Below the pieces are notes generated by a model, which saw only the letters and a program-made list of their open reading frames with translations, was not told where the DNA came from and ran no database searches. Both the position numbers and the translations under genes were made by a program. Shown one piece after another: positions 41,658 to 49,325 of a DNA stretch of 64,000 nucleotides; position 1 is the stretch's first letter; the number at the start of each line of letters is the position of its first letter. The DNA is from Candidatus Oxydemutatoraceae bacterium (lineage in GTDB: Bacteria; Pseudomonadota; Gammaproteobacteria; Poriferisulfidales; Oxydemutatoraceae), in contig OZ245335.1 in assembly GCA_965226235.1 (NCBI GenBank), forward strand, positions 1,580,427 through 1,644,426, given 5' to 3'.

Positions 41658-42620
41658 TTACTCGAAATGAGTGCGCAACTCTTCGCTGATTGAGAAAATA
41701 TCTGCAATAACCCCGTAGCGTGCAATATTGAATATTGAAGCTTCGGCATCCGTATTGACTGCAATAATATTAGGTACATGTTTCATGCCCGCCATGTGCT
41801 GTACGGAACCGGAAATTCCCATCGCAATATAAATATTGCAACTGCTTACGGTCTTGCCTGACTGCCCTACCTGGCGGGATTTTGGTAGCCAGCCATTGTC
41901 CGCAATGGGGCGTGAGCAGCCAAGGGTGAAATCTATCAAGTCTGCCAGTTCCTGGAATTGTTCAACATTGTCTTCTTCGCTGATTCCACGCCCTATTGAC
42001 AGAATGTGTTCCGCTTGGGTGATGTCTACATCGCCGCCGGATTCAGGTTCTATAAATTCCAAATGTCTGGTATGCATCTGTGTTTCAGGCAGAGCGAAGG
42101 AGTTTACTTTCGGACGTGCAGTCCCTTCGACAGGCTTGAAGACGTTAATACGGATGGTGACCAAAACTGTTTTTTTGCCGGGAAAGTCCACTTCCACATG
42201 CATTTTTTCGGCATATGCGGCACGAGTTGCTACCAGTTCATCTCCGTCGTAGTGGATGGCAAATACATCGCTGGCAAAACCAAAGCCGCCTTTTGCCGCT
42301 ACCACCGGGGCGTATCCCCACGCATCCACACTATGCGGCATCAGGATGACCGCCGGCATACGCTCGCGTGCAAGTGCCAGTACTGCTGACTCATAAATAT
42401 CCGGCTGAAAATTCTCGGTAGGTGTTTCAATGGTAATGACCTCATCCACACCGGTTACACTGACCGGTTCCACAAACCTGTCCGGGTCTTTACCCAGTAT
42501 GACCACGGATAATTGCTGTTCATTTTGAGACTTGAGCATGGAAGCTACACGGATAACTTCCAGCGTTGCCACGCTAAGTTCGCCCTGTCGGTGATCTGCA
42601 AGTACCAGTATCCCGCTCAT
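41658..42620 (-). CDS. etfA: electron transfer flavoprotein, alpha subunit
   Basis: 320 aa. FAD-binding C-terminal domain (…IYIAMGISGSVQHMAGMKHVPNIIAVNTDAEASIF…). Confidence 0.85.
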   Translation of the reverse strand: MSGILVLADHRQGELSVATLEVIRVASMLKSQNEQQLSVVILGKDPDRFVEPVSVTGVDEVITIETPTENFQPDIYESAVLALARERMPAVILMPHSVDAWGYAPVVAAKGGFGFASDVFAIHYDGDELVATRAAYAEKMHVEVDFPGKKTVLVTIRINVFKPVEGTARPKVNSFALPETQMHTRHLEFIEPESGGDVDITQAEHILSIGRGISEEDNVEQFQELADLIDFTLGCSRPIADNGWLPKSRQVGQSGKTVSSCNIYIAMGISGSVQHMAGMKHVPNIIAVNTDAEASIFNIARYGVIADIFSISEELRTHFE

Positions 42621-43414
42621 GGTGCCTCTCCTTTTAATTCTTTGATGATTTCGGCCATACGTGCCGCCTGTTCTGCTGCAGTGCCTTCAATCAATTCCGC
42701 CTGACCTTTTTCAGGAATGAACATCCGGCGTAAACGAAAAGCAGAACCCGCCTCGCCCACATCGTTGTCACTCAAGCCCAGATCGGTATGGGTCAGTTCT
42801 TCAACCGGTTTAGCCCTGGCTTGTTTGATGCCACGTAGCGATCCATAACGGGGTTCGTTAATCCCGAGCTGAATTGTCAGTACAGCCGGGCAGTCCACTG
42901 CAAGCACCTCTTCCAGTCCTCCTTCCAGTTCACGCCGTACTTTGGCAGTAGAATCTCCCGCAGAGTATTCGAGGCTCGAGACCACTGCAACATGCGACCA
43001 ACCAAGCTCTGCAGCGATTGCGATGCCAGTGCTTGCATGGGCATGATCTGCAGACAGAGTACCTGCAAATACCATGTCAACATGCTCCTTGATGGCAACT
43101 CTTGCAATTACCTTTCCGATCACAAGTGAATCAGAACCTTTCAATTCATCACTCCAGACACGAATGCCACGTTCACCGCCCTTGGCCAGGCATTTACGCA
43201 GGCCATCTTCGGCCTCTTTCGGACCCACGGTAACCGGAATGATTTCCACTCCTTCATGTGCTTCCATGATCTGCAGTGCGGTTTCGTAGGAATAGTCATC
43301 CCATTCATTGAGTTCGTAATCAAGGTAATCAGGATCGGCATCTTTGCCGTCCTCACGCACCTCAAAATCCTCATCAAGCGTTGCAATCTGTTTAATGGCT
43401 ATCAGTATTTTCAT
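42617..43414 (-). CDS. etfB: electron transfer flavoprotein, beta subunit
   Basis: 265 aa: MKILIAIKQI…VTVGPKEAEDGLRKCLAKG… ETF-beta signature. 4-nt overlap with etfA. Confidence 0.85.
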   Translation of the reverse strand: MKILIAIKQIATLDEDFEVREDGKDADPDYLDYELNEWDDYSYETALQIMEAHEGVEIIPVTVGPKEAEDGLRKCLAKGGERGIRVWSDELKGSDSLVIGKVIARVAIKEHVDMVFAGTLSADHAHASTGIAIAAELGWSHVAVVSSLEYSAGDSTAKVRRELEGGLEEVLAVDCPAVLTIQLGINEPRYGSLRGIKQARAKPVEELTHTDLGLSDNDVGEAGSAFRLRRMFIPEKGQAELIEGTAAEQAARMAEIIKELKGEAP

Positions 43415-43469
43415 TAAAATTGGCTCGGAAGGTTGAACCTACATTATAATTTTTTATATCTTGAAAAAA

Positions 43470-47041: not shown

Positions 47042-47068
47042 CCACGGACCCTCTCGGTGGGTCCGTGG
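47042..47068 (-). other. perfect 10-bp stem / 7-nt loop hairpin in the tmd - Fe-S oxidoreductase intergenic region
   Basis: ccacggaccc tctcggt gggtccgtgg read directly. No U-tract, so not a canonical terminator. Confidence 0.6.
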
Positions 47069-47132
47069 TGATACGGATTCGTCGCGGACAACATACCCAA
47101 GCCCATTATTATCTGGCTTGAGGAAGTTGTTT

Positions 47133-49325
47133 TCAGCCTTGGTAACTGATCTCGAATGTGCCGTCAGGTATATACGGCGTGCCCCAGACAGCCACTTCAC
47201 GCCGGTACGGCTTGGGGTATTGCGCACGAGGCTCTTCGATCTCCCGCGCAAGACGATGTCCTTCGAACGTAGCATCTGCAATCAGCTTCGGTGCCCAGGC
47301 ATCACCGAGGACATAGACATCCTTGATACCGTTCTTGGCCCACTCATCCTTACGCGCTTTCAGGCCGCGATGCAGGTCATCCACAGAATGCCGACCCGTT
47401 ACCAGTACCAGGGTATCAAACTCATGCCATGCATACGTCTTGTTTTCACTGCGCGGCAGTTTTCCCGGTCCTCGGTAAGTACGCTCCGAACCGTCCCCCC
47501 AGACGTTATACAACTCAATGCGGTTGGCTTCGGCGCGACTCGCTGCGGTGTCGCTCAGCACTTCGACATGCAGTTCATGCAAACGGCGGTGCATGTTGGG
47601 TGCCTCCAGCGTGAAGTCCATGTAACTGGCCAGTCCTGCGGCAGAGGCGATGGTTACATCGTGACCGGCTTCGGCCAGTTTTTGCGCCAGACTCGGCGCC
47701 ATGTAATAAGGGTCGTAATTCAGGAGCATGACTTTCTTGCCAATTTCCTTATTCCCGGCAAAGATCTGCTCAGGGGTTACATGGCTCGGTAGGCTCGCAT
47801 CGATTCCCGGAATGGGGTCGTGGGTAAATGCGTTGGTGCCATCGGTGTTCCATGCGGAACCGGTGGCGATGGCGATTTTCTCCGCACCATATTCCAGGCA
47901 GTCGTCCACACTCAAAGGCTTGGCACCTAGAGCGACCTGGGATTCCTTGTTTTTCTTGACCAGCTTTTGCAGTTGCGTTTCACGGTAATCGCGGTGGTAG
48001 CTCCATTCACCTAGACCGGGTAAGGTTGCGACATCATTGACGTACCCCCCTATCTTGTCCGCCTGGTCCACAATATGGGTTACATACCCCCGCTCCATCA
48101 GCACACGTGCGCACTCGGCACCCGCAGGGCCCGCACCCACGACCAGAATGGAATCGTCAGAACCTGCCTTGGGAAATCTTTCAGGATGCCAGCCCCGGCG
48201 ATATTCTTCTCCTGCAGTGGCGTTTTGAGTGCAGATGAAAGGAGGCCCACCAATTTCCCATCTGGAGATACATACGTTACAGCCGATACAGACACGAATA
48301 TCGTCAATACGCCCCTCATCGATCTTGTTCGGTAAAAAAGGATCGGAAATCGAGGGTCTTGCTGCACCGATGATATCCAGTTGACCGGAACGCACTATTT
48401 CAGCCATTTTTTCCGCATCCGTGAAACGTCCCACACCCAGCACCGGCTTCTTGGACTCTTGTTTTATAAATTGCTGCCAGGAATGCTGATGCCCCTGTCG
48501 GTAAAAGCGTGATGGTCCGGCATCCTCACCCCATTCGGCGATATCGCCGACATTGATATCCCAAACATCGACAAGCGGGTCAGCTAGTCTGACAAATGCC
48601 AAGCCGTCCTTTTCAACTTCAATCCCGCCTTCGCCATATAAGGTATCTACAGCAAAGCGGGTCGCGATTGCACAGTCGTCACCGACTGCACGCTTCACTT
48701 TTTCGAGAGTCTCGATCCAGAATCTGGCGCGGTTTTCAAGCGAACCGCCGTACTTGTCATGACGTTTGTTGTAGTACTTGGAAAGAAACTGCAACGGCAA
48801 ATAGGAGTGTGCTCCATACACATAAACGATATCGAACCCGGCATCACGTGCACGTTTCGCGGATTCCACATAGAATCCCTCTACTTCGTCGATCTCCTCT
48901 TGGTCCATTTCATGGCAGTAAGTCTGCAACTCAAACTCGGAAGCGTACTGACTTGGACCTCGCGGCGTACAGCGCGATTCCATACAGGGTGCATGAGCCG
49001 AGCCGTACCACATTTCAACACCCGCCAAAGCGCCATACTTGTGTATATGCTCAGTCATGACGCCAAGATTGCGTACGTCACCCGCGTCCCACAGACGCGC
49101 AGACACCCGGTGGACATCATCCGACTCAGGATGAATGGAACAGTACTCGGTGTTGATGCCGGCCCAGCCGCCTTCTGCCTTGACGGAGCGGTTGGCAGCC
49201 TGAAATCCGGGTTTTTCCGAGCCGGCGCCGATGCAATGCGGGACTTGATAAAACCGGTTTTTTAACGTTTTGGGGCCAATGTCAATTGGCTCAAACAAGA
49301 TATCATATTTAGGGTCACGCGCCAT
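47133..49325 (-). CDS. tmd: trimethylamine dehydrogenase / dimethylamine dehydrogenase family flavoprotein (OYE-like FMN domain + 4Fe-4S + ADP-binding domain)
   Basis: 730 aa beginning [35 protein letters not shown]…. Contains [12 protein letters not shown] cluster motif and GAGPAGAE dinucleotide fold. Collinear with the Methylophilus TMADH sequence as I recall it. AGGAGG RBS. Confidence 0.8.

Follow-up and report, generated by a model that had tools for sequence, protein, structure and literature searches.

A conserved gene cluster pairs a trimethylamine dehydrogenase and its electron transfer flavoprotein with a predicted EtfD-like membrane protein and an LRV solenoid protein

Introduction

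Trimethylamine dehydrogenase (TMADH) and its electron transfer flavoprotein (ETF) are a textbook model of electron transfer between proteins, and for the orthologues of Methylophilus methylotrophus W3A1 this transfer is established by crystal structures and kinetics. Here we study a cluster of five genes that encodes a predicted pair of this kind, at positions 41,658 to 49,325 of a 64,000-nucleotide stretch of contig OZ245335.1 from Candidatus Oxydemutatoraceae bacterium (this whole stretch is called the window below). Between the gene for TMADH (tmd) and the two ETF genes (etfB and etfA) lie a gene for a membrane Fe-S protein and a gene for a protein built of LRV repeats.

To our knowledge, the re-oxidation of the ETF semiquinone is unassigned in the classic TMADH/ETF model system. 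The potential of ubiquinone is roughly +100 mV. For the oxidized/semiquinone couple of W3A1 ETF a value of +196 mV is quoted in PMC12630350. The papers that we searched discuss the TMADH/ETF pair without an acceptor for the reduced ETF, and they use tmd alone as a marker of trimethylamine (TMA) dehydrogenation; those on W3A1 TMADH/ETF make no mention of Fe-S or LRV genes between tmd and etfBA.

The closest functional analogy would be DgcB, which partners DgcA, an Fe-S flavoenzyme of the OYE/TMADH superfamily, beside etf genes. We know of no LRV gene associated with dgc clusters. In mycobacteria EtfD couples ETF to menaquinone and to proton pumping, as seen in a vesicle assay (PMC13083937), and the idea that the EtfD family replaces ETF:quinone oxidoreductase is traced there to Wischgoll 2005 and Agne 2021. 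The same paper reports that Pseudomonas aeruginosa DgcB, which it cites for dimethylglycine catabolism, and Bacillus subtilis FadF have lost the cysteines of D1, the linear [3Fe-4S] cluster of EtfD, and it argues that in these two proteins ETF donates directly to D2, a non-cubane [4Fe-4S] cluster. The structure of EtfD, 9OJN, was determined by cryogenic electron microscopy in 2025.

We estimate a probability of about three in four that the cluster forms a self-contained electron route, from TMA over TMADH and ETF to the EtfD-like protein and the quinone. The cluster names a concrete candidate for the ETF acceptor, from a family whose structure and function were established only in 2025-26. The tmd/Fe-S/LRV/etfBA gene set is conserved in many bacteria and appears to be undescribed: in the searchable literature, which covers few subscription journals, we found neither this cluster around tmd described nor its EtfD-like protein or the family of LRV proteins, so that this negative is suggestive only.

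Results

A gene set conserved around tmd

All five genes are on the minus strand, and two hairpins follow tmd:

47133-49325, minus strand: tmd, predicted trimethylamine dehydrogenase of 730 amino acids (aa), an enzyme with 6-S-cysteinyl flavin mononucleotide (FMN), [4Fe-4S] and ADP (PDB 1DJN match, conserved residues)
47096-47122, minus strand: first hairpin after tmd, with a stem of 8 base pairs (bp) and a loop of 11 nucleotides (nt), then UAUGUUGU (RNA fold)
47041-47069, minus strand: second hairpin after tmd, with a G+C-rich stem of 11 bp and a loop of 7 nt, U tract absent (RNA fold)
44883-47006, minus strand: etfD-like gene, predicted membrane Fe-S/heme b oxidoreductase of 707 aa (transmembrane helices, Pfam, 9OJN match)
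43470-44846, minus strand: LRV/HEAT alpha-solenoid protein of 458 aa, TTG start, isoelectric point (pI) 9.1 (Pfam LRV, 1LRV, AlphaFold2 model)
42617-43414, minus strand: etfB, ETF beta subunit of W3A1 type, 265 aa (1O94_C match)
41658-42620, minus strand: etfA, ETF alpha subunit of W3A1 type with flavin adenine dinucleotide (FAD), 320 aa (1O94_D/3CLU match)

An earlier note, made from the letters of this stretch, had marked these five open reading frames (ORFs) as an operon for amine oxidation. All are present with the domain content that it gave, and their homology is too strong for chance ORFs; Pfam and NCBIfam also agree on the 458-aa LRV/HEAT repeat protein, etfB and etfA. The spacers are 126 nt between tmd and the Fe-S gene, 36 nt between the Fe-S and LRV genes and 55 nt between the LRV gene and etfB, while etfB and etfA overlap by 4 nt. 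The sequence AGGAGG lies 6 nt 5' of the tmd ATG. A mechanical ORF call lets the Fe-S gene begin at GTG 47045 (44883-47045, 720 aa). This start was rejected in favour of ATG 47006, because an identical 707-aa protein is present in a public collection and because GTG 47045 lies inside a hairpin. For the LRV gene, the alignment with homologues beginning MQ supports the TTG at 44846 as the start.

The conservation of the set was studied from a Tmd alignment scan of one genome per species, which gave 548 loci with relatives. The best 80 were fetched, and these together with two earlier loci (82 in all) were searched by tblastn with the five proteins of the window. The synteny count uses only those 64 loci in which 8.2 kb or more of sequence follow tmd. 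In 62 of the 64, tmd, the Fe-S gene, etfB and etfA are collinear and on the same strand. The two exceptions are a metagenome-assembled genome (MAG) of Hyphomicrobium, in which none of the partners lies within 10 kb, and a second MAG that is without etfBA. The collinear loci span Gamma-, Beta- and Alphaproteobacteria and include a plasmid of Paracoccus aminovorans, where RefSeq names the five products FAD-dependent oxidoreductase, heterodisulfide reductase-related iron-sulfur binding cluster, hypothetical protein, ETF beta and ETF alpha.

The LRV gene stands between the Fe-S gene and etfB in about 28 of the 62 collinear loci, with one copy decayed. It is carried by Methylophilaceae, Paraburkholderia, Cupriavidus, Aromatoleum, Methylophaga, Methylohalomonas, Woeseia and Thiotrichaceae, while the clusters without it (about 34) are mainly from Steroidobacteraceae-like Gammaproteobacteria. 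Given the collinearity in 62 of 64 loci, we regard the tmd/Fe-S/etfBA unit as ancient and widespread and the LRV gene as an optional module. The full tmd-FeS-LRV-etfBA arrangement, for which a synteny search had been suggested, thus recurs in other species, and its core does so almost throughout. The further claim, a complete amine-to-quinone route encoded as one unit, holds for the unit as a syntenic set; a single operon is unproven, and quinone reduction is read from the mycobacterial homologue.

A trimethylamine dehydrogenase and its own ETF

Tmd aligns with the TMADH of W3A1 (PDB 1DJN) without a gap, residues 2-729 against 1-728, at 1268 bits and 72% identity, which bears out its supposed near-collinearity with the Methylophilus enzyme. 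The three-domain architecture of TMADH is complete, with the FMN TIM barrel, the [4Fe-4S] cysteines and the ADP-binding domains; in Pfam and NCBIfam terms these are Oxidored_FMN, an OYE-like second alpha/beta domain and Pyr_redox. Conserved are Cys30, to which FMN is attached, the triad Y169/H172/D267, the cluster ligands C345/348/351/364, and V344 and Y442 at the electron exit that faces ETF. The substrate bowl (Y60, S74, W105, W264, W355) is of the TMA type. The nearest species representative by Tmd is a Thiotrichaceae MAG, with 84% identity.

Two other identities were considered for Tmd. Histamine dehydrogenase was rejected, scoring about 500 bits against 1268 for TMADH, and dimethylamine dehydrogenase (DMADH) was ruled out by the specificity triad, which is Y/S/W and not Q/T/F. 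Here we take Q/T/F at positions 60/74/105 to be the DMADH signature and Y60/S74/W105 to distinguish TMADH; the equation of Q/T/F with DMADH reportedly goes back to work by Yang in 1995 and Basran in 1997. By its sequence tmd is a TMADH orthologue, and TMA activity with ETF as the acceptor is predicted.

Second tmd paralogues, divergently oriented, occur in Methylophilaceae (L039 2349-4556, L052 826-3003 and L082 547-2727, all on the minus strand). They are 62-64% identical, carry Q60/T74/F105 together with T344 and F442, and presumably encode dimethylamine dehydrogenase. Both TMADH residues that contact ETF (344 and 442) are different in them. A further locus, L084 (216-4741), has two tandem tmd-like genes 5' of just one Fe-S/LRV/etfBA set; in the second of the two genes the catalytic triad is changed (H172D, D267N), and this copy may be a non-canonical or inactive paralogue.

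The two ETF subunits are clearly of the W3A1 type. EtfB matches 1O94_C with 340 bits and EtfA matches 1O94_D/3CLU with 393 bits, while the next ETF in the PDB reaches 126 and 128 bits, respectively. The anchor of the recognition loop, Leu-beta194, is conserved in EtfB, and alpha-Arg237, which stabilises the semiquinone, in EtfA. Judged by homology, their orthologue is the W3A1 ETF of the co-crystal with TMADH (1O94), the physiological partner of TMADH, in line with the view that TMADH is re-oxidised by ETF. The step from TMADH to ETF is therefore as well founded as homology allows.

A membrane protein of the EtfD family without D1

Hydropathy gives five hydrophobic segments in the first ~265 residues of the Fe-S protein, and in the AlphaFold2 (AF2) model there are helices at 23-52, 84-118, 127-152, 179-208 and 239-262. 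The Pfam domains are a 4Fe-4S dicluster (Fer4) and two CCG stretches. The only strong PDB match is 9OJN, the EtfD of Mycobacterium smegmatis, with E = 1.4e-69 for the single sequence and 307 bits for a profile of 30 sequences. With Foldseek the model matches 9OJN over its full length (E = 7e-27, TM-score 0.67, 753 columns), and its membrane part matches NarI (TMt 0.58). The N-terminal polytopic membrane domain and the two [4Fe-4S] motifs described in the earlier note were both found, and the 9OJN match places the protein in the EtfD family, the type proposed to replace ETF:quinone oxidoreductase. The studies of anaerobes and syntrophs that the note had in mind were presumably those of Wischgoll 2005 and Agne 2021.

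The cluster ligands were compared using HMMER alignments and the EtfD ligands given in PMC13083937. CTMCGRCHEACP aligns to the cubane cluster D4 (C301/304/307/311) and CRACAACVEICP to the cubane cluster D3 (C412/415/418/422). The motifs YHDPC, FCCGAGG and NCPKC align to the ligands of the non-cubane [4Fe-4S] cluster D2 (C637, C672/673 and C709/712), and these five cysteines are invariant in 30 homologues. In contrast, all ligands of D1 are replaced (C503D, C538N, C581D and C584S), and therefore we place the protein in a D1-less branch of EtfD rather than with the strict mycobacterial type. Of the two CCG domains that had been annotated, both are present at the domain level, but only the second keeps cluster-binding cysteines; the first is degenerate and has lost its four cluster ligands.

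Three histidines, H90, H253 and H271, are invariant in 30 homologues. In the AF2 model, with a mean predicted local distance difference test (pLDDT) score of 76, H90 in the second and H253 in the fifth transmembrane helix lie at similar depth near the cytoplasmic helix ends. They probably correspond to His78 and His241, the heme ligands of EtfD, although the sequence alignment with EtfD is unreliable in this region.

A soluble CCG protein such as GlcF, which the earlier note had named as a refuting case, was also considered, and was ruled out by the five transmembrane helices, the NCBIfam scores below cutoff and the full-length EtfD fold. GlcF scores 19.6 bits against a cutoff of 333, and TfrB, TmcB and GlpC match weakly, far below their cutoffs. 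The DgcB-type N-terminal Pfam family was not assigned to the protein at E <= 0.001.

More distant full-length homologues of the Fe-S protein are carried by haloarchaeal plasmids. On a plasmid of Halobellus limi (L086, 2045-9178) such a homologue, with 38% identity, is divergent from a gene for an 844-aa 'FAD-dependent oxidoreductase', which is followed by etfB and etfA and has a BCCT transporter nearby. From its size and the transporter context, the oxidoreductase is taken as a putative protein similar to dimethylglycine dehydrogenase. With this arrangement the pairing of an EtfD-like protein and ETF with a putative amine dehydrogenase would reach into the Archaea, and it fits a general pairing of the Fe-S family with ETF-dependent amine dehydrogenases.

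An LRV solenoid found in tmd clusters

The protein between the Fe-S gene and etfB matches Pfam LRV (PF01816) with 96.5 bits against a cutoff of 21.6, and more weakly the structure 1LRV (E = 2.9e-7, residues 252-449). Its repeat period is 26 residues, and AF2 predicts a continuous, all-helical alpha-solenoid of about 17 helix pairs (pLDDT 94.7). By fold it comes closest to HEAT scaffolds, the PP2A A subunit among them, at the low TM-scores expected for flexible solenoids. With a pI of 9.1 (the family median is 9.0) it is basic, compared to 4.7-5.9 for ETF, TMADH and the Fe-S protein.

The LRV protein of 1LRV has an N-terminal [4Fe-4S] domain. Among 30-32 members of the family studied here no cysteine is invariant or nearly so, and a role as Fe-S carrier like 1LRV was excluded because of this lack of conserved cysteines.

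Full-length relatives fall into about 57 clusters, are 29-46% identical and are called 'hypothetical protein' if they are named at all. Among relatives the identity is about 30-57%, compared to 72-92% for Tmd, and the family diverges much faster than either Tmd or the Fe-S protein. In all cases with an examined context, the gene is placed between those for the Fe-S protein and EtfB in a tmd cluster; this holds for the three most distant relatives sampled and for the copy on the Paracoccus aminovorans plasmid. We regard the LRV protein as a cluster-specific accessory and an optional module; that about half of the clusters are without its gene shows that it is dispensable.

Hairpins separate tmd from the downstream genes

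Folding of positions 47000-47140 gives the two hairpins, with a minimum free energy of -48.3 kcal/mol (z = -3.65) and none of 200 shuffled sequences as stable. The second hairpin, which overlaps the spurious GTG 47045, is unique in the window. A strong hairpin is found 3' of tmd in all eight LRV-type relatives that were folded, with unrelated sequences, and some of these resemble canonical intrinsic terminators (L003, with a 9-bp stem and U8, and L056). The spacer between tmd and the Fe-S gene has a median of 145 nt in LRV-type clusters but is about 0-30 nt in clusters without LRV.

Two stable hairpins after tmd, terminator-like in some relatives, make strict co-transcription uncertain, and tmd may be partly uncoupled in transcription from the four downstream genes. 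Of the proposed five-gene operon, then, the one conserved gene set stands, and the hairpins lie between tmd and the other four genes. We regard the five genes as one functional unit, in which tmd is probably expressed in excess or partly separately, by attenuation or by stabilisation of the 3' end at the hairpin(s).

Other signals were searched for as well. In a consensus scan of 39-51 kb, sigma-70 promoter and terminator sites were rarer than in shuffled sequence, and Rfam gave no RNA family in the same region. A search for sigma-54 promoters stayed at chance level, with no minus-strand site upstream of tmd, and the 1.16-kb region upstream of tmd holds just short, chance-like repeat matches. 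No clear terminator was found at the end of the gene set, as the region downstream of etfA has no significant RNA fold (z = +0.47).

The surrounding window

The rest of the window reads as a methylated-amine island. Other features near the cluster and along the window are:

39485-40129, minus strand: NarL-family response regulator, downstream of etfA and on the same strand (Pfam/NCBIfam)
40126-41328, minus strand: soluble HisKA_3 histidine kinase of 400 aa, downstream of etfA (Pfam/NCBIfam)
50488-56047: five-gene ATP-binding cassette (ABC) transporter, divergent from tmd, with Peripla_BP_6 (twin-arginine signal), two BPD_transp_2 permeases and two ATPases
20357-22009: glutamine-synthetase-like gene, probable gmaS (Pfam)
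21943-25212: GATase, GXGXG and Glu_synthase genes, probable mgsABC (Pfam)
25717-27225: gene of the ammonium-transporter family (Pfam)
29035-30144, minus strand: GcvT-like gene (Pfam)
31814-37035: sarcosine-oxidase-like genes, probable mgdABCD (Pfam)

The region 19129-37035 probably holds a complete N-methylglutamate pathway for methylamine, with gene names taken from the Pfam domains. No enzyme for the oxidation of dimethylamine (dmd or dmmDABC) was seen in the window.

The response regulator passes the NCBIfam NarL equivalog with 265 bits against a cutoff of 250. Inspected by eye, the kinase shows neither an obvious hydrophobic stretch nor a periplasmic sensor. Of the 82 loci, 19 have the response regulator and 6 the kinase no more than 10 kb from tmd, and similar kinase/regulator pairs lie near some other tmd clusters. 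The pair is a possible regulator of the cluster, weakly linked to it, and may respond to TMA rather than to nitrate. The binding protein of the ABC transporter adjoins tmd in only four loci (L003, L005, L024 and L071); the substrate of the transporter could be a methylated amine.

The G+C content is 0.45-0.53 across 38-50 kb, compared to ~0.58 elsewhere in the window. ORFs for transposases and integrases (DDE_Tnp_1, rve) flank the methylamine and TMA genes at 9351-13697, 17852-18865 and 38487-39437. In the closest relative, L001, the cluster has other neighbours (FTHFS, FolD, Gcw_chp and GGDEF-EAL), and in the window just a Gcw_chp fragment is left (37900-38313), beside an insertion sequence (IS) element. 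This comparison suggests IS-mediated rearrangement around the cluster.

Further, the window contains an aa3-type oxidase operon and several IS elements. Two identical copies of the 16-mer TGGAACATCCCTTCCT are found in inverted orientation about 2 kb apart, at 7409-7424 (plus strand) and 9484-9499 (minus strand). They bracket a 449-aa ORF without Pfam match (7760-9109) and overlap the start of a DDE transposase ORF, and they may be the terminal inverted repeats of an IS element. Three consecutive plus-strand ORFs of 328, 344 and 174 aa, also without Pfam match, lie at 13719-16307 between IS elements, in a stretch of lower G+C.

Riboflavin genes (ribBA-like DHBP synthase/GTP cyclohydrolase II, DMRL synthase, GCHY-1) flank two other clusters, in Methylophaga sp. 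OBS4 (L002, 1-1221 and 13437-13913) and in the metagenomic contig L084 (11175-13119). They may supply flavin for abundant flavoproteins.

Discussion

The proposed electron route

In the route that we propose, TMADH would convert TMA to dimethylamine and formaldehyde at the covalent FMN and would pass single electrons through the [4Fe-4S] cluster and Tyr442 to the FAD of its dedicated ETF (EtfAB), as is established for the W3A1 orthologues. The ETF semiquinone would be re-oxidised at the cytoplasmic face of the EtfD-like protein. Since no ligands are left in the first CCG domain, entry would probably be at D2, the non-cubane [4Fe-4S] cluster of the second. From D2 the electrons would move over the two cubane clusters, D3 and D4, to a b heme in the five-helix NarI-like domain, probably held by His90 and His253, and then to a quinone, presumably ubiquinone in an aerobic proteobacterium. 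For both the oxidation of ETF and the reduction of quinone we argue by analogy, from the structure and assay of M. smegmatis EtfD, together with the synteny. The basic LRV solenoid would most likely be a non-catalytic docking or scaffold subunit that keeps the acidic ETF and/or TMADH by the membrane protein, as its fold class, charge and gene position suggest.

A number of points weigh against this route. The coupling of ETF to the Fe-S protein in the cluster is argued from related proteins and is not experimental. The AF2 model of the Fe-S protein is moderate, with a pLDDT of 76, and the profile alignment pairs H253 with H236 of EtfD and not with H241, in a stretch of low confidence. For the LRV protein, the proposed role draws only on fold class, charge and gene position, and the protein is not essential, as about half of the clusters do without its gene. 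The five genes may not form one transcript, given the hairpins after tmd that are terminator-like in L003 and L056. Finally, transfer from ETF to the quinone pool is not obviously downhill, since the quoted +196 mV exceeds the potential of ubiquinone; the last step could be exergonic if the potential of ETF shifts in the complex or differs in the organism of the window.

Other explanations

It is possible, though on the unlikely side, that the etfD-like, LRV and etfBA genes are a transcription unit of their own that serves several amine dehydrogenases (DMADH, perhaps N-methylglutamate dehydrogenase), with tmd merely as their most frequent neighbour. A hairpin or terminator-like element does separate tmd from the rest, here and in eight of eight LRV-type relatives, and mgdABCD-like genes are present in the same 64-kb window. 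Further, L084 has two tandem tmd-like genes for one Fe-S/LRV/etfBA set, and in L039, L052 and L082 a presumed dmd lies a few kb off with no ETF of its own in view. However, the gap of ~0-30 nt between tmd and the Fe-S gene in the 34 clusters without LRV speaks for tight coupling to tmd, and the presumed dmd copies carry T and F in place of the ETF-docking residues V344 and Y442. Such sharing would extend the route from TMA to quinone and does not exclude it.

We consider it rather unlikely that the LRV protein is a factor for maturation or assembly (flavinylation of TMADH, loading of Fe-S or ADP, or assembly of ETF) and not an adaptor in electron transfer. Recombinant TMADH from E. coli is only partly flavinylated. 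Accessory chaperones typically show this pattern, with a gene that is confined to tmd clusters although half of these do without it, and the family evolves fast in comparison with Tmd. On the other hand, the protein has no catalytic or cofactor-binding motif and no conserved cluster of Cys or His, and its gene lies between etfD and etfB, not beside tmd; the solenoid fold itself says nothing on function.

A stronger role for the solenoid is put forward only tentatively, as we think it unlikely: the EtfD-like protein and the LRV protein would together be an unrecognised, dedicated ETF oxidase, with the solenoid as an obligatory docking subunit of a supercomplex of TMADH, ETF and the membrane protein. 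If true, such a membrane supercomplex would explain how the semiquinone of an ETF of unusually high potential, at the quoted +196 mV, is re-oxidised.

The same value is a ground for an improbable alternative to the last step of the proposed route, in which the Fe-S/heme protein oxidises ETF but feeds an acceptor other than the ubiquinone pool, for example a carrier of higher potential. At +196 mV, as far as this quoted figure goes, the semiquinone would be too oxidising to reduce ubiquinone, and the absence of the linear [3Fe-4S] cluster of mycobacterial EtfD indicates that the subfamily is wired differently. However, the membrane domain has a NarI/EtfD-like fold that interacts with quinone, no cytochrome c gene is present in the cluster by ORF list and Pfam, and DgcB and FadF, also without D1, are considered ETF-dependent homologues by the authors of the EtfD work (PMC13083937). 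That the Fe-S protein is an unrelated soluble reductase of Hdr/GlcF/LutA type, adjacent by chance, is hardly credible: CCG domains are common to HdrB, GlcF, GlpC and LutA and there are weak sub-threshold matches to TfrB, TmcB and GlpC, but five transmembrane helices, the full-length EtfD match and a place between tmd and etfBA in 62 of 64 loci effectively refute it.

Implications

Almost all close homologues of tmd show the association, and this opens the final step of respiration on TMA, in the route from TMA to quinone, to direct tests. It also poses a sharp thermodynamic question, namely how an ETF with the quoted potential of +196 mV feeds the quinone pool. Further, the gene set improves on the present genomic markers of bacteria that oxidise TMA in soils, sediments and waters, and it singles out an uncharacterised solenoid family that occurs in the context of tmd clusters only, so that an orphan family is made testable.

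Comparison with known systems

With the TMADH-ETF pair of W3A1 (1DJN, 2TMD, 1O94-1O97, 3CLR-3CLU) the proteins studied here share the residues for cofactors, catalysis, substrate bowl and ETF docking, and the difference is the organism. The LRV protein belongs to the same repeat family as the LRV protein of Azotobacter vinelandii (1LRV) but is about twice as long and has no conserved cysteines.

The resemblance to mycobacterial EtfD (Rv0338c / MSMEG_0690; 9OJN; ETF:menaquinone oxidoreductase) extends to the five-helix domain, the two cubane clusters, the two CCG domains and the D2 cysteines. The Fe-S protein of the window is ~25% identical to it overall, has lost the D1 ligands and has no C-terminal tail of the long disordered kind. 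Ubiquinone, not menaquinone, is the likely acceptor, and the donor would be an amine dehydrogenase in place of acyl-CoA dehydrogenases, with the gene co-located with those for ETF and the donor.

DgcB of P. aeruginosa and FadF of B. subtilis, by the description in PMC13083937, also lack the D1 cysteines and have short or no C-terminal tails. From DgcA/DgcB the system differs in its substrate, which is TMA and not dimethylglycine. None of the component families is new, and there is a functional precedent in DgcAB with etf genes, in part by the account of that paper. The novelty lies in a D1-less EtfD module dedicated to TMADH and in the extra solenoid subunit.

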